Shown: positions 1,363 to 19,344, counted from the first letter of the stretch. The stretch is DNA of 22,251 bases from Candidatus Aenigmatarchaeota archaeon (GCA_043808015.1 JAZDFI010000013.1:1-22251); one strand, 5' to 3'. Translations and numbers: made by a program. Notes: generated from the letters alone by a model not told the origin.

Positions 1363-3104
1363 GGAAAGGCGCGGAGGAAATGGCCAGGGACCAGAGGGAA
1401 ATCTCGGTCTCGGAATTCTTCGAGAAGAACCGCCATCTTCTAGGGTATGACAACAAGGCGAAAGCGCTTCTCATGATTGTTAAAGAAGGCGTAGACAACT
1501 CGCTTGATGCGACCGAAGAGGCGGGCATACTGCCTGACATTTACATAGGGGTAAAACAATTGGCCGAGGAGAAATACGAGATAGTCATAAAGGACAACGG
1601 CCCCGGCATCGTGGAGAAGCAGATAGGCAGGATTTTCGGCAAGCTGCTCTACGGCTCCAAGTTTCACAGGCTCAAGCAGTCGAGAGGCCAGCAGGGCATC
1701 GGCATCTCGGCAGCGACGCTTTACACCCAGCTCACCACGGGCGAGCCGCTCGAAATACGAACGTCGACCGGCGACGGGAATATTTTCAAATACAAGATAA
1801 AGGTCGACGTGCGCAAGAACGAGCCCATCATACTTGAAAGCGCTACGGAAGCCGGCGATGGCTGGCGCGGCGTGCAGCTGAAATTCGTGACCGAAGGGAT
1901 ATACAGGGAGCACAAGCAGTCGATCGCTGAGTATGTAAAACAGACGGCGATAGCGAACCCCCATGCACACATAGTCTTCGAGTCGCCGACAGGCAGGGCG
2001 GAATACAAGAGGGCGATAGAGCACATGCCCGCCGAAGCGAAGGAGATAATGCCCCACCTGCACGGCGTCGAGCTGGGCGTCTTCACCCGCATGCTGAGGG
2101 ACACGCAGGCGCGCACGTTCGTCAGCTTCCTGACCAGCGAGTTCACCAAGGTCGGAAGAGTCACGGCAAAAGACATATGCCAGAAATCCGCCGTCGAAGA
2201 ATCCAGGAAGCCGAGGAAGGTTACGGACGACGAGGCGAGGAGAATAATAGAGGTCATCAAGACCGTCAAGCTGCTCAAGCCGCCGACTGACTGTTTATCG
2301 CCGCTCGGCGAGGAAGTCATAAAGGAGAGCCTGAAAAAGGAGCTCGCACCCGAATGGGTCGACGCGGTGACGCGGCCACCTGAAGTGTACCGCGGCTGGC
2401 CTTTCCAGATCGAAGTGGGCATCGCCTACGCCGGCTCGATAGCGGAGCCGAAGGTCATGCGCTTCGCGAACCGGGTCCCCCTGCTGTATCAGCAGGGCGA
2501 CTGCGCCATAACGAAATCGATAGCGGATATCGAATGGAGGCGCTACGGGCTGGCGAATTTCGTGAAAAACAACACGGACAATCCCGAGCCGGTCGTGATA
2601 TTCGTGCACCTGTTCTCGGTCTGGGTCCCGTTCACTTCGGAATCGAAGGAAGCCATCGCATCATATCCGGTCATAATCAAGGAGATAAAGCTCGCGCTGC
2701 AGGAATGCGCGCGCAAGCTCGGCCTTTACCTTTCCGGCAAACGGAGAGGCGAATATCACCTGCAGAGGATGGCGACGTTCGAGCGCTACGCAGACGAGAC
2801 TGCGAACGCCCTTTCCGAGCTGACTGACGTCAGCAGGGAAAAAATAAAGAAGGATATTTTCGAGCTCATAAATTCGAAAAAACATAAATTAACGGAGGAA
2901 GAAAATGGAGAAAACCAAGGCAGCAGAGTCGAAGCAAACGAGGGAAGCGATAGAGGCGAGGAAACTGCACGACCTGGGAAAGGACGTATTAAACCAGATA
3001 GAGAAAAAGGAAAGCCCAAAAATAGAGTTTCCGGTCAGGTCACTCTCGAACATTTACTTCGACGAGAAGAACGGCCTGATCCAGCTGGGGGACAAGAAGA
3101 GTGA
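1359..3104 (+). CDS. top6B: DNA topoisomerase VI subunit B
   Basis: EFFEKNRHLLGY, GHKL motifs KEGVDNSLDA, DNGPGI, GSKFH..QSRGQQGIGIS; transducer RFANRVPLLY and VPFTSESKEAI. ATGA overlap with the KH gene. Confidence 0.97.
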   Translation: MRKGAEEMARDQREISVSEFFEKNRHLLGYDNKAKALLMIVKEGVDNSLDATEEAGILPDIYIGVKQLAEEKYEIVIKDNGPGIVEKQIGRIFGKLLYGSKFHRLKQSRGQQGIGISAATLYTQLTTGEPLEIRTSTGDGNIFKYKIKVDVRKNEPIILESATEAGDGWRGVQLKFVTEGIYREHKQSIAEYVKQTAIANPHAHIVFESPTGRAEYKRAIEHMPAEAKEIMPHLHGVELGVFTRMLRDTQARTFVSFLTSEFTKVGRVTAKDICQKSAVEESRKPRKVTDDEARRIIEVIKTVKLLKPPTDCLSPLGEEVIKESLKKELAPEWVDAVTRPPEVYRGWPFQIEVGIAYAGSIAEPKVMRFANRVPLLYQQGDCAITKSIADIEWRRYGLANFVKNNTDNPEPVVIFVHLFSVWVPFTSESKEAIASYPVIIKEIKLALQECARKLGLYLSGKRRGEYHLQRMATFERYADETANALSELTDVSREKIKKDIFELINSKKHKLTEEENGENQGSRVEANEGSDRGEETARPGKGRIKPDREKGKPKNRVSGQVTLEHLLRREERPDPAGGQEE

Positions 3105-4026
3105 ACGCCTGTATTTTAACGTCGCCCACACCAGGAAGTTCATGCAGACCCTCATGGTCGCGGCGGAATGTAAGAAGATACGCGAGCAGGGCGTAACCAC
3201 TACGATTCGTGACCTTTACTACGCGCTCAAGCGCACGATTCCGGGGACTAGGGAAAACACGTTCGAGGAGCAGGACGAGAGCGACCCTGTCATCGAAGAT
3301 CTCGAAGCGATGCTCAACTCGCTGCGAGAGAACCTGAATCTCAAAGCGGACCGTAAGGGCTACATGGCGGGAAATGTGATGCTTAACGACATGGGCGACA
3401 GGATAAACTGCGCCAAGATGGGCAGCTCCGGATGGGCGATACCCAGCAACGTCGAGAGCGACGTGATAAAGTTCGAGGACGTGAAAGCCGACTACGTGCT
3501 GGTCATAGAGAAGGACGCCGTGTGGCAGAGGCTCAATGAAGACAAGTTCTGGAAGAAACATAATTGCCTTATAATCACGGGCAAAGGGCAGCCTGCACGA
3601 GGCACGCGCCGCCTCATAAACAGGCTGCATCATGAACACAACCTGCCGGTCTACGTGATGTGCGACGCGGACTGCTACGGATATTATATTTACTCGGTAA
3701 TCAAGCAGGGCTCGATCAATCTTTCGTTCCTTTCGGACAGGCTGGGCACGCCTGACGCCAAATACATCGGGCTGACGACTCTGGACGTCGAGAAATTCGC
3801 TATTCCGCACAACGTGACCATAAAAATGACCAATCTCGACGTCAAACGCACGAAAGAGCTTATGCAATACGTGTGGTTCAAACCCAAGGAGTGGCAGAAG
3901 GAGCTGAAGAACATGCTGCACTTCAACCACAAGCTGGAGCTTGAAGCGCTCTCGTCGAAGGGAATAAAGTTCATCTCGGAGAAATACCTGCCGGAGAAGA
4001 TAAAGCAGGAAGACTTCCTGCCTTAA
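2905..4026 (+). CDS. top6A: DNA topoisomerase VI subunit A (Spo11 family)
   Basis: Catalytic TIRDLYY, TFEEQDESD, TOPRIM VIEKDA, TGKGQP, DADCYG, KLELEAL. Confidence 0.97.
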   Translation: MEKTKAAESKQTREAIEARKLHDLGKDVLNQIEKKESPKIEFPVRSLSNIYFDEKNGLIQLGDKKSERLYFNVAHTRKFMQTLMVAAECKKIREQGVTTTIRDLYYALKRTIPGTRENTFEEQDESDPVIEDLEAMLNSLRENLNLKADRKGYMAGNVMLNDMGDRINCAKMGSSGWAIPSNVESDVIKFEDVKADYVLVIEKDAVWQRLNEDKFWKKHNCLIITGKGQPARGTRRLINRLHHEHNLPVYVMCDADCYGYYIYSVIKQGSINLSFLSDRLGTPDAKYIGLTTLDVEKFAIPHNVTIKMTNLDVKRTKELMQYVWFKPKEWQKELKNMLHFNHKLELEALSSKGIKFISEKYLPEKIKQEDFLP

Positions 4027-4040
4027 CAAAATACCAGACC

Positions 4041-4448
4041 TTACCGGTTATAATATTCTCTATTTTCAAGTCTTCTAAGATTATTTTCCATGTCGCTTTC
4101 ACGTATAATGCTCTTCATGCTGTCCGTGTTCATGAGACGTTCTTGCTGCCATTTTTGTATTTTTCTCTTTATTCCCTTGTAACCGCATTTTACGCCGCAC
4201 AACACACCATAAGCTGCCAGGGTACCCAGCACTATAAGCGACCCTTTGCCCAAAACATCCATCGTCTCAGCGCTAAGCGGCGGTATCAGTGGCTTGAAGT
4301 TCGGGTTCTCGGGTAGGCCCACGAGCTTTTTTGTCTGCTGGAGCTGCACGTTTTTAGCAGCGTAAATTCCATGTATATCGCCAGTCCTGAAATAATCACT
4401 CATGCCGCTGTTATCGTTCAAAACGACAGGATATTGTGATATGCCCAT
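4041..4448 (-). CDS. Hypothetical protein with one predicted transmembrane helix
   Basis: 135-aa ORF filling the gap between top6A and tRNA-Asn. Hydrophobic SLIVLGTLAAYGVLCGV is followed by a basic stretch; TTTATAAA at 4484-4491 lies upstream. Confidence 0.6.
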   Translation of the reverse strand: MGISQYPVVLNDNSGMSDYFRTGDIHGIYAAKNVQLQQTKKLVGLPENPNFKPLIPPLSAETMDVLGKGSLIVLGTLAAYGVLCGVKCGYKGIKRKIQKWQQERLMNTDSMKSIIRESDMENNLRRLENREYYNR

Positions 4449-4574
4449 AAAATCACTCGATTTTAACAGTTTTGTTTCAAGAGTTTATAAATGTTACTAT
4501 ATAGTAGTTAATATATTTAATGTGATGAAGCCGCAGAACCTTTTTATTGCTGGCGCGGTTTAATTGATACTATT

Positions 4575-4678
4575 GTCCCGGTAGCTCAGCTGGCAGAGCG
4601 TTCGGCTGTTAACCGAAAGGTCGCACATGAGCTGGGGAACCATCTCGTGGACTAAAGGTTCGAATCCTGCCCGGGACG
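4575..4678 (+). tRNA. tRNA-Asn(GTT) with a 31-nt intron at position 50/51
   Basis: Acceptor GTCCCGG/CCGGGAC plus G73; D-arm GCTC/GAGC; anticodon arm TTCGG-CTGTTAA-CCGAA. The T-arm GCAGG-TTCGAAT-CCTGC is restored only after removing 4625-4655. CCA not encoded. Confidence 0.95.
4625..4655 (+). other. BHB-type tRNA intron (T-stem, 50/51)
   Basis: Central helix GGTC(4619-22)/GACT(4650-53), bulges GC^A and AA^A, inner helix CATGAG/CTCGTG. Confidence 0.88.
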
Positions 4679-4685
4679 TTAAAAA

Positions 4686-4715
4686 TGAGGGCTAACGCAC
4701 CCTCAATTTATTTTT
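4686..4715 (+). terminator. Hairpin plus T-tract after tRNA-Asn
   Basis: TGAGGG(4686-91)/CCCTCA(4700-05) inverted repeat followed by ATTTATTTTT. Confidence 0.45.
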
Positions 4716-4764
4716 GTTAGAAATAGTTACATTAAGTTATATTTTTCCTAAACTCATTATAAAA

Positions 4765-5565
4765 ATGGAGCTTGAATTGAAAAGTGTTGAATTCAGTGTT
4801 TTTGACAAACGTAGAAAAATCTCATTGCCGCACACTCTAAATTCAAATTTAGCTGAAGATATCGGGATACAAATAGGGGATGGTTGTTTGTGCAGAGGCA
4901 AAAAAGATTATACAATAATTTGCAGTTTTAATGCGATAGAAGACAAATACTACGTTGATAATTTTGTCATCCCTCTGAAAACAAAACTTTTCAAAAACGT
5001 GAATTTGATAAAAAACGCTAGATTTGGAGAGATGAGAATAAAAATAGGTTCCAAAGCTATATTCGATTTTTACACAAAGATTATCGGTCTTTCTTTTGGA
5101 AAGAAAGATCATGTAACTATACCGAAAATAATATTCAGAAATAAAAACAACACTATAGCTTGTTTAAGAGGTATCATTGACACGGATTTTTCTATCAGTT
5201 TCAAAAAAAGACACAAAAACATTCATTATTATCCTGTCATATCAGCGAACTTCAAAAGCAAAGAACTTGTTATACAGCTTAGTAAAATTTTTAAAGATTT
5301 GGGATTAAAAGTTCATACGGAATATGATTACGAGAGGTTTGATGAAAGATTCGGGGAGATAATAACACACTATATTTACTTGAAAGGTAAGGATAACTTA
5401 GAAAAATGGTGGGATATCATAGGAAGCAACAATCATAGACATATAACCAAATATAAAATTTTCAAGAAGTTTGGCTATTGCCCACCTAGGATAAATATCA
5501 CAGAAAGGTTTAAAATGATAAAATCTGGTGTTAGTAATAACCTTTTTGAATCTTACACCCAATAA
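4765..5565 (+). CDS. Free-standing LAGLIDADG homing endonuclease (two motifs)
   Basis: Motif 1 LAEDIGIQIGDG, motif 2 ACLRGIIDTDF; Lys-rich; markedly AT-rich relative to host genes. ATG 4765 preferred over TTG 4714. Confidence 0.88.
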   Translation: MELELKSVEFSVFDKRRKISLPHTLNSNLAEDIGIQIGDGCLCRGKKDYTIICSFNAIEDKYYVDNFVIPLKTKLFKNVNLIKNARFGEMRIKIGSKAIFDFYTKIIGLSFGKKDHVTIPKIIFRNKNNTIACLRGIIDTDFSISFKKRHKNIHYYPVISANFKSKELVIQLSKIFKDLGLKVHTEYDYERFDERFGEIITHYIYLKGKDNLEKWWDIIGSNNHRHITKYKIFKKFGYCPPRINITERFKMIKSGVSNNLFESYTQ

Positions 5566-5571
5566 AAGACC

Positions 5572-5850
5572 ATGGAGCTTTTCGACGTGGTCGACAGGCA
5601 CTGCAACATCCGCTTTCTCAAGACCAACTGTAACTTCAGGGAATGCGGGAAGCCGCCTGAGAAGGAAATGCTTATTTTCGAGATGACCATGAACACGGCC
5701 AAGAAGAAGGACATAATTTCCCTTTACCTCTGCCGTGAACACTACAGGGAGATGGAGAAAGCGCTGGAAGGCGTTATCGGCAGGTTCAGGAACGGCCGCG
5801 TCTACAGGATAAAGCAGACGGACGATACGATAGACGTGATTAAATATTGA
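5572..5850 (+). CDS. Small hypothetical protein, putative Zn finger
   Basis: CNFREC...LCREH (C-x4-C...C-x2-H); host-like GC and codon usage. Confidence 0.65.
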   Translation: MELFDVVDRHCNIRFLKTNCNFRECGKPPEKEMLIFEMTMNTAKKKDIISLYLCREHYREMEKALEGVIGRFRNGRVYRIKQTDDTIDVIKY

Positions 5851-5874
5851 TTAAATAACAATACAAATTATTTT

Positions 5875-6657
5875 ATGGATTATATTGTCACATTAAACGA
5901 TGTGCTGAAAATCTACAAATCACAAAAAGCAGGCGAGATGGCTTTGAAACCTTATAAAAAATGGTTTCCTTTAAAGCCCTCACCGGAGTTAGCAGGCGTA
6001 GTTGCCGATTTGATATGTGACGGTCACCTTCAGGGCAGTCCAAAATGGAGAATAGATTTTACCTTCAAAATCAACGAAGAAAAGCTGAGATTCGAAAGAA
6101 AAATTGAAAAAATATTCGGTGTTAAAGGAAAAGCGAGGCCTTGTTATTCCAACGTGTGGGGAGAAAGTTACAATTATGGTGTGAATTGCAAACCCCTAGC
6201 TAAAACCCTTTTTATGTGCGGGGTTCCCAGCGGCAACAAGGTATTGGGAAATTTCGCTTTTCCGGCATGGATTCTTGAAGATAAAAATTATTTCAGAGAA
6301 TTCACGAAAAGATTTTATAATTGCGAGGGCACATGCTGGGGAGGTAAAAGTCCGGGTATAGGCTTTGAGATGTGGAAAGAAGCTGGTAAAATCGACAATT
6401 TAAAAGAATTTTTGGAAGTCATAAGATGTGGCCTGAAAAAATTTTTCGATATAAAAACAACGGAAATTTTCACGACAAGTTCCATGCATGCGAGAAAAGA
6501 TGGCTATGTGACAAAGCCTCTGAGATTTTATATAAAAAGAAAAGAGTCTATATTTAAATTCTATAAAGATATAGGATTTGAATACGAAAAACAAAATAAA
6601 TTGAAAAACATAATAGAAAAATGGGGCAGAACCTCTGTGGGAACTGAAGTGCCATAA
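5875..6657 (+). CDS. Free-standing LAGLIDADG homing endonuclease (two motifs), 3' end overlapping tRNA-Phe
   Basis: Motif 1 LAGVVADLICDG, motif 2 EFTKRFYNCEG, typical C-terminal FYKDIGF..KQNKL; AT-rich; TTAAATA boxes upstream. Confidence 0.88.
   Translation: MDYIVTLNDVLKIYKSQKAGEMALKPYKKWFPLKPSPELAGVVADLICDGHLQGSPKWRIDFTFKINEEKLRFERKIEKIFGVKGKARPCYSNVWGESYNYGVNCKPLAKTLFMCGVPSGNKVLGNFAFPAWILEDKNYFREFTKRFYNCEGTCWGGKSPGIGFEMWKEAGKIDNLKEFLEVIRCGLKKFFDIKTTEIFTTSSMHARKDGYVTKPLRFYIKRKESIFKFYKDIGFEYEKQNKLKNIIEKWGRTSVGTEVP
6643..6657 (+). other. BHB-type tRNA intron in the acceptor stem (4/5), 15 nt
   Basis: Outer helix CT(6635-36)/AG(6659-60), central helix GTGG(6637-40)/CCAT(6652-55), bulges GA^A and AA^C. 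Excision gives GGGACAG, the exact complement of CTGTCCC. Confidence 0.78.
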
Positions 6658-6684
6658 CAGTAGCTCAGCCCGGGAGAGCGCTCG

Positions 6685-6723
6685 AGTGAAACGGATTTGA
6701 CAAAAAAACCGTTTTATGGCGAA
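6685..6723 (+). other. BHB-type tRNA intron in the anticodon stem (30/31), 39 nt
   Basis: Outer helix AG/CT, central helix CGCT/GGCG, bulges CG^A and AA^G, 9-bp inner helix GTGAAACGG/CCGTTTTAT. Confidence 0.9.
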
Positions 6724-6802
6724 GCTGAAGACCGATAGGTCGTGGGTTCAAATCCCACCTGTCCCATATTTTATTTTTATTCTTTCCATCGAATCATTCT
6801 CT

Positions 6803-7861
6803 ATGAAAAAGATCGCCGAAGGAAAAGCGAAGCTTTACGTTCCCGAAGAGTCGCTCACGAAGGATTCTGAAACGTTCTACAATCCGGCCATGGAGCATCA
6901 GCGTAACGTGACCATCGCTGTCGTCCGCCTCGCCGGCTCGAAGGAAGCGCTCGATCCACTGGCGGCGACCGGGATTCGCGGAATCCGCCTGCTAAAGGAA
7001 GCGAACGTCGACAGCGTCGTTTTCAATGACGCCAGCCCGGCTGCGATAAAGCTCGTGCGCAGGAACATCGCTCTCAACAAGATAAAAAAGTCCTCTTATG
7101 AAATCTCCAGGAAGGACGCGAACGAACTTTTCCTCGAAAAAAGGCGCTACAACTTCGTCGACATAGACCCTTTCGGCTCGCCCATCAAGTTCCTGAGAAG
7201 CATCTCTTATGCGCTCAGGAAGGACTCGCTGCTCGGAGTGACGGCGACGGATTCCGGCGCGCTCGCAGGGAAATTCGCTGACGCCTGCTTCAGGCGCTAC
7301 GGCGTTTTCGTATGCTCGACTGACTTCCCGAAAGAGCTGGGCGTGCGCGTGCTCATCACGTCGATACTCAAGAATCTCGCGACGCACGACATGACTTTCG
7401 AGCCTCTGTATTCGCACGCGAACCATTATTTCCGCGTGATAGGGCGAATATCGTACGGGCCGGACAAGAACGTCTCCAAAATAAAAATGGTTTCCTACTG
7501 CCCCAAATGCCATAACAGGAAAATCGGCGTCGAGAGCGTATGCGACAACTGCAGAGGCGAGATGCGTCACATCGGTCCCATATGGACTGGTAAAATTCAC
7601 GACCGCGAATTCTGCAAACGCTTGCTGGAAACGTTCGAATTTCCGGGTAAAAAGGAGATAGAGCTTGCCGCGGAGGCGATAGACCACCCCTTCTACTACG
7701 ACCTGCATGCGCTAGCGCAATCGCTCAAGACCAGCCCTCCGCGCATGGAGAAGCTGATAGAAAAGCTGAGGGTGAAAGGCTTCGAGGCGTCGAGAACGCA
7801 CCTGGAGCTCAGGGCCGTAAAAACCAATGCGCCGTTAAAAGAGCTGAAAAAGCTGTTATAG
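6803..7861 (+). CDS. trm1: tRNA (guanine26-N2)-dimethyltransferase Trm1
   Basis: EGKAK, FYNPAMEHQRN, LAATGIRGIR, VDIDPFGSP, VTATD, ELGVRVL, CxxC..CxxC, GPIWTG, ASRTH. Start moved to ATG 6803 because 6716 lies inside the tRNA. Confidence 0.95.
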   Translation: MKKIAEGKAKLYVPEESLTKDSETFYNPAMEHQRNVTIAVVRLAGSKEALDPLAATGIRGIRLLKEANVDSVVFNDASPAAIKLVRRNIALNKIKKSSYEISRKDANELFLEKRRYNFVDIDPFGSPIKFLRSISYALRKDSLLGVTATDSGALAGKFADACFRRYGVFVCSTDFPKELGVRVLITSILKNLATHDMTFEPLYSHANHYFRVIGRISYGPDKNVSKIKMVSYCPKCHNRKIGVESVCDNCRGEMRHIGPIWTGKIHDREFCKRLLETFEFPGKKEIELAAEAIDHPFYYDLHALAQSLKTSPPRMEKLIEKLRVKGFEASRTHLELRAVKTNAPLKELKKLL

Positions 7862-16982: not shown

Positions 16983-18008
16983 ATGATGATAATTATGCAT
17001 TCTGATAAAAAGTCCGTCACCAAGTCGCGCAAGGACGACCACATACGCATATGCCTTGAGAAAAACGTCGAATTCGCGAAGTCGAACGGCTTCGACCGCG
17101 TCGAGCTGGAGCACAGCGCGTTACCGGAGATTGAGAGAAGCGACATCGATTTGTCCACCATGTTCCTCGGCAAGAAGTTCCGCTATCCGCTTTTCATAGA
17201 GGCGATAACCGGCGGAACGGAACAGGGGGAGCGCATAAACAAAAACCTTGCACGCGCAGCGGAACAGCTTGGAATTGGCATGGGAGTTGGTTCGCAGCGC
17301 GCGATGCTGGAGGACGCGAAGGCGACTAGAACGTATGCGGTTCGCGATGTCGCTCCTGGCATATTCCTTCTCGGCAACATAGGCGCGGCGCAACTGAGTA
17401 AATACGACACGTCCCGCGTGCTGGCGCTGGTCGATGCGATAAAGGCTGATGGCCTGGCAATCCATCTCAACGTCGCGCAGGAACTCGCCCAAAAAGAAGG
17501 GGACAAATCATGGAAGGGGGTTTATGATGACATAAAGGCGCTGTGCGCCAAGTCAAAAGTCCCGATAATCGCGAAAGAAACCGGCTGCGGCATTTCGGGA
17601 AAGCTTTCGAAATCGCTGGTCACGGCAGGCGTGAAGGCAATCGATATAGCCGGCGCGGGCGGGACTTCATGGGTCAAGGTCGACAGCCATCGCACCAGCG
17701 ACGATGTGAGCCACATCGCGGAATGGGGCATACCTACAGCGACTGCGCTGAAGGACGTCGCTAGCGCTGTCAAAGTCCCGATAATCGCTTCCGGAGGCAT
17801 ACGCAACGGCGTCGATGCCGCTAAGGCGCTAGCGATGGGAGCCGACTTGGTCGGCATGGCCTTGCCGCTGCTGAAACCGGCGACTGAATCTTCCGAAAGT
17901 GTTAAGAAATATCTGCAAAAAATAATCTCGCAGCTTGAGGATGCGATGTTCCTGGTCGGCGCGAGGAACGTGGCCGAGTTGAAGAAAGTGAAAGTCACTT
18001 ACGTCTAG
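16983..18008 (+). CDS. fni: Type 2 isopentenyl-diphosphate isomerase (FMN-dependent)
   Basis: RKDDHIRICL, AITGG, MGVGSQR, NIGAAQL, HLNVAQE, KETGCG, AGAGGTSW, WGIPT, ASGGIRNG. The start may be 16995. Confidence 0.96.
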   Translation: MMIIMHSDKKSVTKSRKDDHIRICLEKNVEFAKSNGFDRVELEHSALPEIERSDIDLSTMFLGKKFRYPLFIEAITGGTEQGERINKNLARAAEQLGIGMGVGSQRAMLEDAKATRTYAVRDVAPGIFLLGNIGAAQLSKYDTSRVLALVDAIKADGLAIHLNVAQELAQKEGDKSWKGVYDDIKALCAKSKVPIIAKETGCGISGKLSKSLVTAGVKAIDIAGAGGTSWVKVDSHRTSDDVSHIAEWGIPTATALKDVASAVKVPIIASGGIRNGVDAAKALAMGADLVGMALPLLKPATESSESVKKYLQKIISQLEDAMFLVGARNVAELKKVKVTYV

Positions 18009-18948
18009 TTTTTTTCAACACACGGAATTCAAAAACTGCAATAAAGGGAAGTGAAAATAACAATATCCATAAATAAAAACTATCACCTATCGTCAAATTT
18101 TGACTCAACGACTCAATAAATTTTGAGTCGTTTTCTTTAATTTCGATTTCTTTCGTGTCATTGAGAATAACGAAAGAAGGTATGAAAGGTATAATATCAA
18201 TTTCTATTTTTATTGTATAGTTATTTGGTCCTAAATTTTTTTCAAAAATACCACCAGAATCAGTTTTTTCAATTAAACTGGTGGAAGGTTCTTTATTCTC
18301 ATCTGGTTTTGCTTCCATGAGATGATGGCTTTTCAAAATAATTCTAGATTCAGTTGGAATTAAATTATTTGTTACTTTTACTGTAAGTCTTCCAGTTTTC
18401 ACATATTTCTCTGTTACATCATGTTGTATTCCAGTACTTTCTGTCCAAAAAACGTAAGATAGCCTTTTGCTTAAATTACCATCAGTCCATACGTCTGAAT
18501 AAAATTTTGGATTATCATAACTTACTTGGCTACCAGTAAAGGGGTCTAAATTAATCCATCTATTTTCTGAAAAAATTTCAACCCAAAAATGACGTTCTCC
18601 GTTTGTACCAACCATTCTTGCAGGTATTCCAATGGAATTTGACATTTGAATAAAAATGTTAGAAAAATCTATACAATCTCCGATTTTTGTAAAGTAAACA
18701 GCCTCTGGTATATGAAAAAACGTGCTACAGCAACTTATATTATATTTATGAAACCACCAAGCTAAAGCCAGCGCTTTTTCTTTATCGGTGCTGAGATTTT
18801 CAGTTTCCCTCAAAGCAATATTTTTATATTCTTTTTGCGCCCATAAAAACTGCCATATACAGATGAACGCGATTGAAACAATTACGACAAGAATAATCCA
18901 TAAAATTCTATTTTTATTTGTTCTTAGCCATTCCAGTGTCTTTTTCAT
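17995..18948 (-). CDS. Membrane-anchored transglutaminase-like (Cys-His-Asp) protein
   Basis: GDCIDFS, GIPARMV, HFWVEI, WINLDP; N- and C-terminal hydrophobic helices; strongly AT-rich. Confidence 0.85.
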   Translation of the reverse strand: MKKTLEWLRTNKNRILWIILVVIVSIAFICIWQFLWAQKEYKNIALRETENLSTDKEKALALAWWFHKYNISCCSTFFHIPEAVYFTKIGDCIDFSNIFIQMSNSIGIPARMVGTNGERHFWVEIFSENRWINLDPFTGSQVSYDNPKFYSDVWTDGNLSKRLSYVFWTESTGIQHDVTEKYVKTGRLTVKVTNNLIPTESRIILKSHHLMEAKPDENKEPSTSLIEKTDSGGIFEKNLGPNNYTIKIEIDIIPFIPSFVILNDTKEIEIKENDSKFIESLSQNLTIGDSFYLWILLFSLPFIAVFEFRVLKKTRRK

Positions 18949-18957
18949 AGCTATGTA

Positions 18958-19344
18958 TCACGCTGACGTGAACCTGTATCGCCTGGGAGCGAACCTGCCG
19001 TTCACGCCCGAGAATCCACATCGTTGACAGGTCATCTTGTAAAGGATTTTCCTGCCCTTGAGGTTCTTCGTGTAAATCTTCTTGAGGCCGCCGTAGCATG
19101 ACGGGCACTTGTCGATTTTTCCACCCATGCGCGTTTCAGTGACGATTTTCGTGCCGGGTATCTTGGAGAAAATGCTGCGCAGGCGGGCGCTCGAGACCGA
19201 CAGTCGCGAGTCGACCATCTTAAGCCGCATGTTGACCAGGTCCGTGAACTCGCGCAGCGAGGCGATATCTTTATGCTTCTGCATGACCTCCTTTATGACG
19301 AAAAGTATGACGTCCCTGTTGGGGACCTTGGCGCCGTCTTTCAT
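18958..19344 (-). CDS. Hypothetical basic protein with C-terminal Zn ribbon
   Basis: CPSC...CQRCG; host-like codon usage. Confidence 0.75.
   Translation of the reverse strand: MKDGAKVPNRDVILFVIKEVMQKHKDIASLREFTDLVNMRLKMVDSRLSVSSARLRSIFSKIPGTKIVTETRMGGKIDKCPSCYGGLKKIYTKNLKGRKILYKMTCQRCGFSGVNGRFAPRRYRFTSA

Follow-up and report, generated by a model that had tools for sequence, protein, structure and literature searches.

A probable three-exon tRNA-Phe gene with an acceptor-stem intron nested in the 3' end of a LAGLIDADG-family gene of an Aenigmatarchaeota-like archaeon

In the 22,251-nucleotide stretch of DNA analyzed here (GCA_043808015.1, JAZDFI010000013.1:1-22251; hereafter, the window), the plus-strand segment 6639-6766 is probably a functional tRNA-Phe(GAA) gene divided into three exons (6639-6642, 6658-6684, and 6724-6766). 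The first exon, together with the 15-nt acceptor-stem intron that would follow it, lies inside the 3' end of a reading frame of the LAGLIDADG family. This three-exon reading is based on the geometry of the sequence, on the identity of the spliced product with a natural uninterrupted orthologue, and on conservation in a relative. The predicted acceptor-stem intron (intron 1) is a new instance of a known intron kind, and the new aspect is its nesting in the end of a LAGLIDADG gene, along with the series of related loci to which it belongs. The placement of exon 1 within the end of a putative homing-endonuclease gene hints at how rare introns may arise. The window belongs to a DPANN, Aenigmatarchaeota-like archaeon; its reading frames match topoisomerase VI B and A, TFB, Trm1, aIF1A, and aIF5A and are archaeal by content. 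The features under discussion are listed below, where L003, L006, and L017 are loci of related genomes.

4575-4678, plus strand: tRNA-Asn(GUU), with a predicted 31-nt intron at position 50/51 (4625-4655); the homologue in L017 is uninterrupted.
4765-5565, plus strand: ORF1, 266 aa, a second LAGLIDADG-type reading frame (match to 2dch, E 0.0015).
5848-5861, plus strand: remnant of the ancestral tRNA-Phe promoter, ttgattaaataaca; by eye, the same motif lies about 26 nt 5' of tRNA-Phe in L006 and L017.
5875-6657, plus strand: ORF3, a 260-aa LAGLIDADG-family protein that overlaps exon 1 and intron 1 and is missing in L006 and L017.
6623-6629, plus strand: GGGGCAG, a second possible partner for CTGTCCC, with a rival 5' site at 6626/6627.
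6635-6638, plus strand: leader bases of the splicing motif; 6635-6636 form the outer helix, and 6637-6638 open the central helix GUGG/CCAU.
6639-6642, plus strand: predicted tRNA-Phe exon 1, positions 1-4, GGGA, inside the Val-Gly codons of ORF3; with the best junction, the product equals the L006 gene.
6643-6657, plus strand: predicted intron 1, 15 nt, acceptor stem, position 4/5; identical in L003; holds the last ORF3 codons and the TAA stop (6655-6657).
6658-6684, plus strand: predicted tRNA-Phe exon 2, positions 5-30, with the remaining acceptor strand, the D arm, and the 5' side of the anticodon stem.
6685-6723, plus strand: predicted intron 2, 39 nt, position 30/31; regular bulge-helix-bulge (BHB) motif, local fold z -3.76.
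6724-6766, plus strand: predicted tRNA-Phe exon 3, positions 31-73; anticodon GAA at 6727-6729, A73 at 6766.
6803-7861, plus strand: Trm1 (tRNA m2,2G26 methyltransferase), the host gene 3' of tRNA-Phe, syntenic in L003, L006, and L017.

The D arm (GCTC/GAGC) occupies 6663-6679, and the T arm with the 3' acceptor strand extends over 6742-6765; CCA is not encoded, and the trailer is T-rich. As had been pointed out in a preliminary description of this DNA, no contiguous 5' partner exists for the 3' acceptor strand CTGTCCC (6759-6765): TAACAG (6655-6660) stands directly before U8 (6661), and the seven bases 5' of U8, ATAACAG, allow only four acceptor pairs. The anticodon arm is also split, with CTCG (6681-6684) and G-CTGAAGA-CCGAT (from 6724) 39 nt apart, and it does not form if intron 2 is left in place. 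In silico removal of both introns gives a 74-nt tRNA-Phe(GAA) and restores the canonical cloverleaf, drawn by ARAGORN with a 7-bp acceptor stem, D and T arms, A73, and the GAA anticodon in a 7-nt loop. ARAGORN recognizes tRNA-Phe in this spliced sequence but makes no call before the introns are removed, and at default settings it reports no tRNA anywhere in the window. The earlier expectation that standard predictors would miss the gene holds for ARAGORN and partially for Rfam, whose tRNA model covers 6657-6762 with just its positions 4-67, at 29.5 bits against a threshold of 29. Since tRNAscan-SE 2.0 lengthens its candidates by 60 nt so that introns near the ends are caught, according to its description (PMC8450103), that program may find the gene. 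The anticodon stem contains a C27.U43 mismatch (6681 and 6736) common to the window, L003, L006, and L017.

We scanned genomes with a degenerate pattern derived from the tRNA-Phe 3' exon and obtained 22 loci, three of which (L003, L006, and L017) come from close, syntenic Aenigmatarchaeota metagenome-assembled genomes (MAGs). In L006 and L017, the gene order is topoisomerase VI A, tRNA-Asn, a 92-aa ORF, the promoter-like TTGATTTTTAAATAACA, tRNA-Phe, Trm1, and TFB. The tRNA-Phe genes of both are uninterrupted; ARAGORN calls them, and Rfam gives 68 and 68.4 bits, with alignments that span model positions 1-71. After removal of both introns, the window product is identical to the L006 gene at 74 of 74 positions. 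The 15-nt insert recurs in L003, the closest relative, where all 38 bases equivalent to 6623-6660 match the window; identity with the window is 93.1% in ORF3 and 86.1% in Trm1. The spliced product of L003 is also identical to L006 (74/74), and its unspliced tRNA-Phe reaches 29.7 bits in Rfam over model positions 4-67 only. Intron 1 offers no covariation, because the insert does not differ between the window and L003. The window, L003, L006, and L017 all retain the 92-aa ORF, to which no family is assigned, between tRNA-Asn and tRNA-Phe (5572-5850 in the window).

To place the acceptor-stem junction, all junctions within 3000-6660 giving a 7-bp partner for CTGTCCC were enumerated and ranked by the BHB rule. 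The best motif belongs to the junction of 6642 with 6658, with four of four central pairs, two outer pairs, and one inner pair. The central helix joins GTGG (6637-6640) to CCAT (6652-6655), one of its pairs being G.U; the bulges are GA/A and AA/C, and the outer helix pairs 6635-6636 with A6 and G7 (6659-6660). Excision of 6643-6657 had been proposed to create GGGACAG as a perfect partner for the 3' strand, and the joined sequence does pair with CTGTCCC at all seven positions, each Watson-Crick. The previous remark that the central helix requires leader bases is also borne out, as 6637-6638 enter the central helix and 6635-6636 the outer one. A second enumeration covered junctions within 4680-6650 with one mismatch allowed. 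A large intron or a trans-exon located farther upstream was considered and rejected, as the distant sites with a 4-bp helix fall within ORFs, are not flanked by further helices, and are about as frequent as expected by chance, with the exception of a site at the ORF3 start (see below).

The intron had been assigned to position 4/5. A 3/4 register (intron 6642-6656) yields an identical product because an A flanks both junctions, and the choice therefore falls to the bulge-helix register alone, which favors 4/5 by four central pairs of four against two of four. The inner helix was rightly described as weak. With its single pair, intron 1 lies outside the strict hBHBh' definition (two 3-nt bulges, a 4-bp helix, and flanking helices), and its 5' site would be located in an 11-nt loop that a strict-BHB enzyme would not cut. 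In both the window and L003, it conforms instead to the relaxed hBH/BHL form, defined in PMC3239211 as one bulge between two helices with the other site 2 nt beyond the 4-bp helix. The same source assigns such relaxed motifs to broad-specificity EndA enzymes. An ORF family search of the 22-kb window revealed no gene for EndA, RtcB, or another ligase.

Chance was evaluated with 5000 mononucleotide shuffles for each null. Shuffling of 6560-6660 produced a split 7-bp partner together with a 4-bp central helix in 0.12% of the sequences, and shuffling of 6560-6653 with ATAACAG held fixed did so in 1.06%. Demanding the 2-bp outer helix as well left none of 5000 in either null. The motif energy of -1.0 to -1.7 kcal/mol is thermodynamically marginal, and the local minimum free energies (MFEs) are not better than those of shuffled sequences (z +0.73 and +0.83). 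Thermodynamics was also tried as an arbiter between the two candidate 5' sites and was uninformative.

The second candidate site corresponds to an alternative reading that we consider unlikely, in which the 5' cut falls after G6626 and the 3' site at 6657/6658 is unchanged, giving a 31-nt intron (6627-6657) and a product starting with GGGGCAG and containing a G4.U69 wobble. The preliminary description had named GGGGCAG as a start that would contradict it, and this heptamer is indeed present with a 4-bp helix of its own, ATGG (6621-6624) with CCAT, fully Watson-Crick in the window. In RNAfold, the local MFE structure pairs CCAU with AUGG at 6621-6624 rather than with 6637-6640, and the fold of the 148-nt precursor pairs GGGGCAG with the 3' acceptor strand. 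ARAGORN also accepts this product, and the Trp-Gly codons (TGGGG) are kept in the four closest ORF3 homologues. The motif is nevertheless weaker, with no outer and no inner pairs, and the bases 6621-6622 would have to be included in the transcript. In L003, an A-to-T change at the equivalent of 6621 reduces the central helix to three of four pairs and removes the site from the list of complete helices. The product agrees with L006 at 73 of 74 positions, against 74 of 74 for the junction of 6642 with 6658, a comparison that separates the two by one base only.

The earlier account of the locus recognized intron 1 but missed the second intron (6685-6723) and the overlapping LAGLIDADG-family ORF. 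Intron 2 has a central helix CGCT/GGCG, bulges CG/A and AA/G, an inner helix of 9 bp, and an outer helix of 2 bp, and it conforms to the strict hBHBh' definition. In L003, the 30/31 intron measures 37 nt, with the central helix and bulge positions of the window and a different inner helix. The two introns share 23 of 37 aligned bases (62%), compared with 100% identity in the exons on either side and in the 36 nt downstream, which indicates fast change or replacement of the inner helix. The conserved central helix and bulges next to a changed inner helix imply that selection for splicing continued in both lineages. The retention of a spliceable intron in the anticodon stem of the two lineages, each of which has the acceptor insert, is an argument for a gene in use.

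These observations bear on a second, quite improbable alternative, namely that the locus is a 5'-truncated relic left by the insertion of ORF3 and that Phe is decoded by another tRNA-Phe gene or with a 5' piece supplied in trans (a split tRNA). Such a relic would agree with the low-GC inserted DNA that adjoins the gene, with the loss of the ancestral leader TTATAC of L006 and L017, and with the weakness of the acceptor motif. On the other side, the exon bases are 100% identical to those of L003 and L006, the intron 2 BHB motif was maintained despite its altered inner helix, and the cis solution exceeds chance in the shuffles. Furthermore, the L003 assembly contains one match only to the tRNA-Phe pattern in the genome scan, and a search of 4000-7000 detected no direct repeat of the tRNA resembling an att site. 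A split tRNA would be unnecessary, since the cis solution lies 15 nt away.

The other tRNA gene of the window, tRNA-Asn, is interrupted by an intron with a central helix GGTC/GACT and an inner helix of 6 bp, so that the two tRNA genes contain three predicted introns, all at non-canonical positions. The tRNA-Asn intron is at 50/51 in the window and L003, at the canonical 37/38 in L006 (1472-1582, by eye), and absent in L017 (2512-2586; L006 and L017 in locus coordinates, minus strand). Between close relatives, introns turn over quickly. ORF1 and, on the minus strand, a 135-aa ORF without a family (4041-4448) flank tRNA-Asn, and neither occurs in L006 or L017; in L003, the part matching window positions 4731-5442 is missing. 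The region 4000-6700 has a GC content of 36 to 42%, compared with about 52% elsewhere. A transglutaminase-like ORF (17995-18948, minus strand) lies in another island, of 32% GC (18001-19000) in a stretch of about 52%, and is possibly foreign DNA. An integrase-type insertion was examined as a source of the inserted DNA and rejected: no att-like repeat of tRNA-Phe or tRNA-Asn occurs in 4000-7000, and no integrase family was found among the scanned ORFs.

ORF3 is placed in the LAGLIDADG family through its homologues, as 14 of the 21 that were aligned match PF14528 (LAGLIDADG_3). ORF3 itself matches no Pfam family at E values up to 10 beyond noise, and by eye it contains the LAGLIDADG-like motifs LAGVVADLICDG and FYNCEGT. 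A PDB search with ORF3 gave a single weak match, 2huh (E 0.0076), which is unrelated. The reading frame lies between the promoter remnant and tRNA-Phe, and its Val-Gly codons (GTG GGA) supply the central-helix strand and exon 1, while its stop codon forms the last three bases of intron 1. Between the window and L003, ORF3 is under purifying selection (dN/dS 0.14). Synonymous divergence is 0.20 to 0.22 for the 92-aa ORF and ORF3 (0.22 for ORF3) and 0.57 for Trm1; the lower value points to later spread or gene conversion of ORF3. It suggests that the tRNA-Phe/ORF3 tract (5572-6802) was shared or converted later than the adjoining Trm1 (6803-7861). The last 33 codons of ORF3 show no synonymous differences from L003, against about 30 estimated over the 260 codons. 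The tail V-G-T-E-x-P-stop, which encodes the motif, is present in the 4 closest homologues (64 to 100% identity) and absent in the 17 more distant ones. As to origin, it is likely that a putative LAGLIDADG homing-endonuclease gene was inserted between the promoter and the tRNA, with a 3' end carrying exon 1 and the intron.

The start of ORF3 can also be connected with the splicing motif. Its ATGG (5875-5880; 1151-1156 in L003) can pair with CCAT (6652-6655) as a 4-bp helix, and this site may be the relic of a long ORF-bearing intron. A third alternative would make such an intron the present one: exon 1 would lie at the ORF3 start (ATGG plus 2 nt, 5875-5880), a long intron containing all of ORF3 would be removed, and the short intron would be irrelevant, a design that can be likened to the ORF-bearing introns of rRNA. 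The ATGG forms the same central helix with CCAT and has two outer pairs, the L003 product would begin with GGGCCAG (six of seven pairs), and a Met-Gly start is found in 12 of the 21 family members, 11 of them among the 17 distant ones. The window product, in contrast, would begin with GGATCAG, with five of seven pairs as counted by hand; the window site is missing from the list allowing at most one mismatch, and it lies at or before the likely transcription start. We regard this as very improbable. The least probable reading keeps the 5' end unspliced, with a short or mismatched stem from ATAACAG or with the 31-nt insert retained between G7 (6629) and U8; ARAGORN still calls tRNA-Phe (from about 6654) when intron 2 alone is removed and the MFE fold pairs GGGGCAG with the 3' strand, but only four of seven acceptor pairs form in the first form, the 7/8 junction has one of four central pairs, and we know of no tRNA with such an architecture.

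For the three-exon reading, the origin of intron 1 can be carried one step further, tentatively and with less than even confidence: it is possible that the intron is the footprint of a putative homing-endonuclease gene that invaded tRNA-Phe. The ORF3 family would first have resided in a long 4/5 intron with its start codon overlapping G1-G3 (AUG-GGN), an overlap proposed on account of the family members that start with Met-Gly. In this lineage, the 3' end of the ORF would then have given rise to a new 5' splice site and a new exon 1, leaving a 15-nt remainder that would still be spliced. If this history is true, homing followed by ORF loss would be a route by which non-canonical introns arrive, with an ORF-bearing 30/31 intron in the related locus L022 and the ORF-less 30/31 intron of the window.

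Across the 23 loci (the 22 from the scan and the window), tRNA-Phe is interrupted in four, namely the window, L003, L022, and L012, and in three of these four a LAGLIDADG-type ORF lies in or against the gene. Within 2 kb of the 19 uninterrupted loci, no detectable homologues were found, detection here meaning relatives of three query proteins. L022, from an Aenigmatarchaeota MAG, contains a tRNA-Phe on the reverse strand (reverse-complement coordinates about 1329-2040) that is split at 30/31 by a BHB intron of 638 nt, whose central helix is CGGC/GCCG, with bulges CG/A and AA/G, 12 inner pairs, and 2 outer pairs. This intron encodes a 234-aa LAGLIDADG_3 protein (E 1.5e-13) that is 30% identical to ORF1 of the window. 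The L022 reading frame is open across the tRNA 5' exon, and its stop is a TAG in the variable loop; no N-termini that translate tRNA exons were seen among homologues of the intron protein. Archaeal tRNA introns that contain an ORF were not described in the papers searched.

In the processing that we propose for the window gene, the precursor would start at least 4 nt upstream of G1, since the geometry of the motif implies a transcript including at least 6635-6638. As a guess, an A/T-rich tract at 6593-6602 could set the transcription start near 6623. Leader bases and G1-G2 would pair with the intron CCAU, and A6-G7 with the leader. Within this relaxed bulge-helix-loop motif, a splicing endonuclease would cut after A4 (6642) and after 6657, and the same enzyme would cut the regular BHB motif at 30/31. 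A ligase would join the exons, and only afterwards would pairing of the 7-bp acceptor stem and removal of the leader by RNase P be possible; the same geometry implies that cleavage and ligation precede the acceptor stem and that RNase P acts only thereafter. The transcription start, the cleavage, and the order of processing are inferred from the sequence.

These results have consequences for genome interpretation. Acceptor-stem introns represent an extreme of archaeal tRNA gene disruption, and the window case would extend them to DPANN; the natural intron-less orthologue in L006 fixes the tRNA-Phe product to be expected. Common gene finders can miss or truncate tRNA-Phe in such genomes, which bears on judgements of MAG completeness and on inferences of decoding capacity. 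Furthermore, three states are available for comparison, namely no intron (L006 and L017), a short intron beside a LAGLIDADG gene (window and L003), and a long LAGLIDADG-encoding intron (L022), and this makes a homing origin directly testable.

In the literature searched, which mostly did not extend to subscription journals, neither an intron at position 4/5 nor a DPANN acceptor-stem intron was described, and we found nothing relevant on DPANN, tRNA introns, and LAGLIDADG in combination. Among the closest known cases is that of the Thermoproteales, whose tRNAs have introns at 3/4 (Sugahara et al. 2008, cited by Yoshihisa 2014, PMC4090602). Yoshihisa 2014 lists 30/31 among the known intron sites and treats 3/4 in Thermoproteales, the one acceptor-stem site that it names, as an extreme case, in agreement with the precedent given in the preliminary description. 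As in the window, an EndA-type intron lies in the 5' acceptor strand, the motif involves the leader, and splicing comes before end maturation; here, in contrast, the host is a DPANN archaeon, the bulge register points to 4/5, the intron is as short as 15 nt, and a protein ORF encompasses both exon 1 and the intron.

A second comparison is offered by the ARMAN-2 pre-tRNA-Cys, which has a 13-nt intron at 59/60 with an hBH (BHL) motif cut in vitro by an epsilon-2 EndA (Fujishima 2011, PMC3239211). The two share a DPANN host, a very short intron, and one splice site located in a loop instead of a second bulge. The ARMAN-2 intron lies in the T loop and its enzyme is known and tested, whereas the present intron lies in the acceptor stem and is predicted from sequence. 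Archaeal rRNA BHB introns, as described in PMC4496867 and PMC6125680, encode LAGLIDADG homing endonucleases, and they resemble our case in that a LAGLIDADG gene is physically tied to an EndA-spliced intron; the tRNA-Phe intron of L022 has exactly this design. They differ from the window in that the host here is a tRNA and the ORF, which comes from upstream, reaches into exon 1 and the intron instead of being contained in the intron. Finally, an Asgard preprint (10.64898/2026.10.13.758758) reports a few acceptor-stem insertions and no link to mobile elements and calls the arrival of introns an open problem. The Asgard introns, like those described here, are in many cases non-canonical and located at BHB sites, with a few in the acceptor stem, and turn over rapidly between relatives; the Asgard study found no link to mobile elements, whereas three of the four interrupted tRNA-Phe loci considered here are accompanied by a LAGLIDADG ORF.
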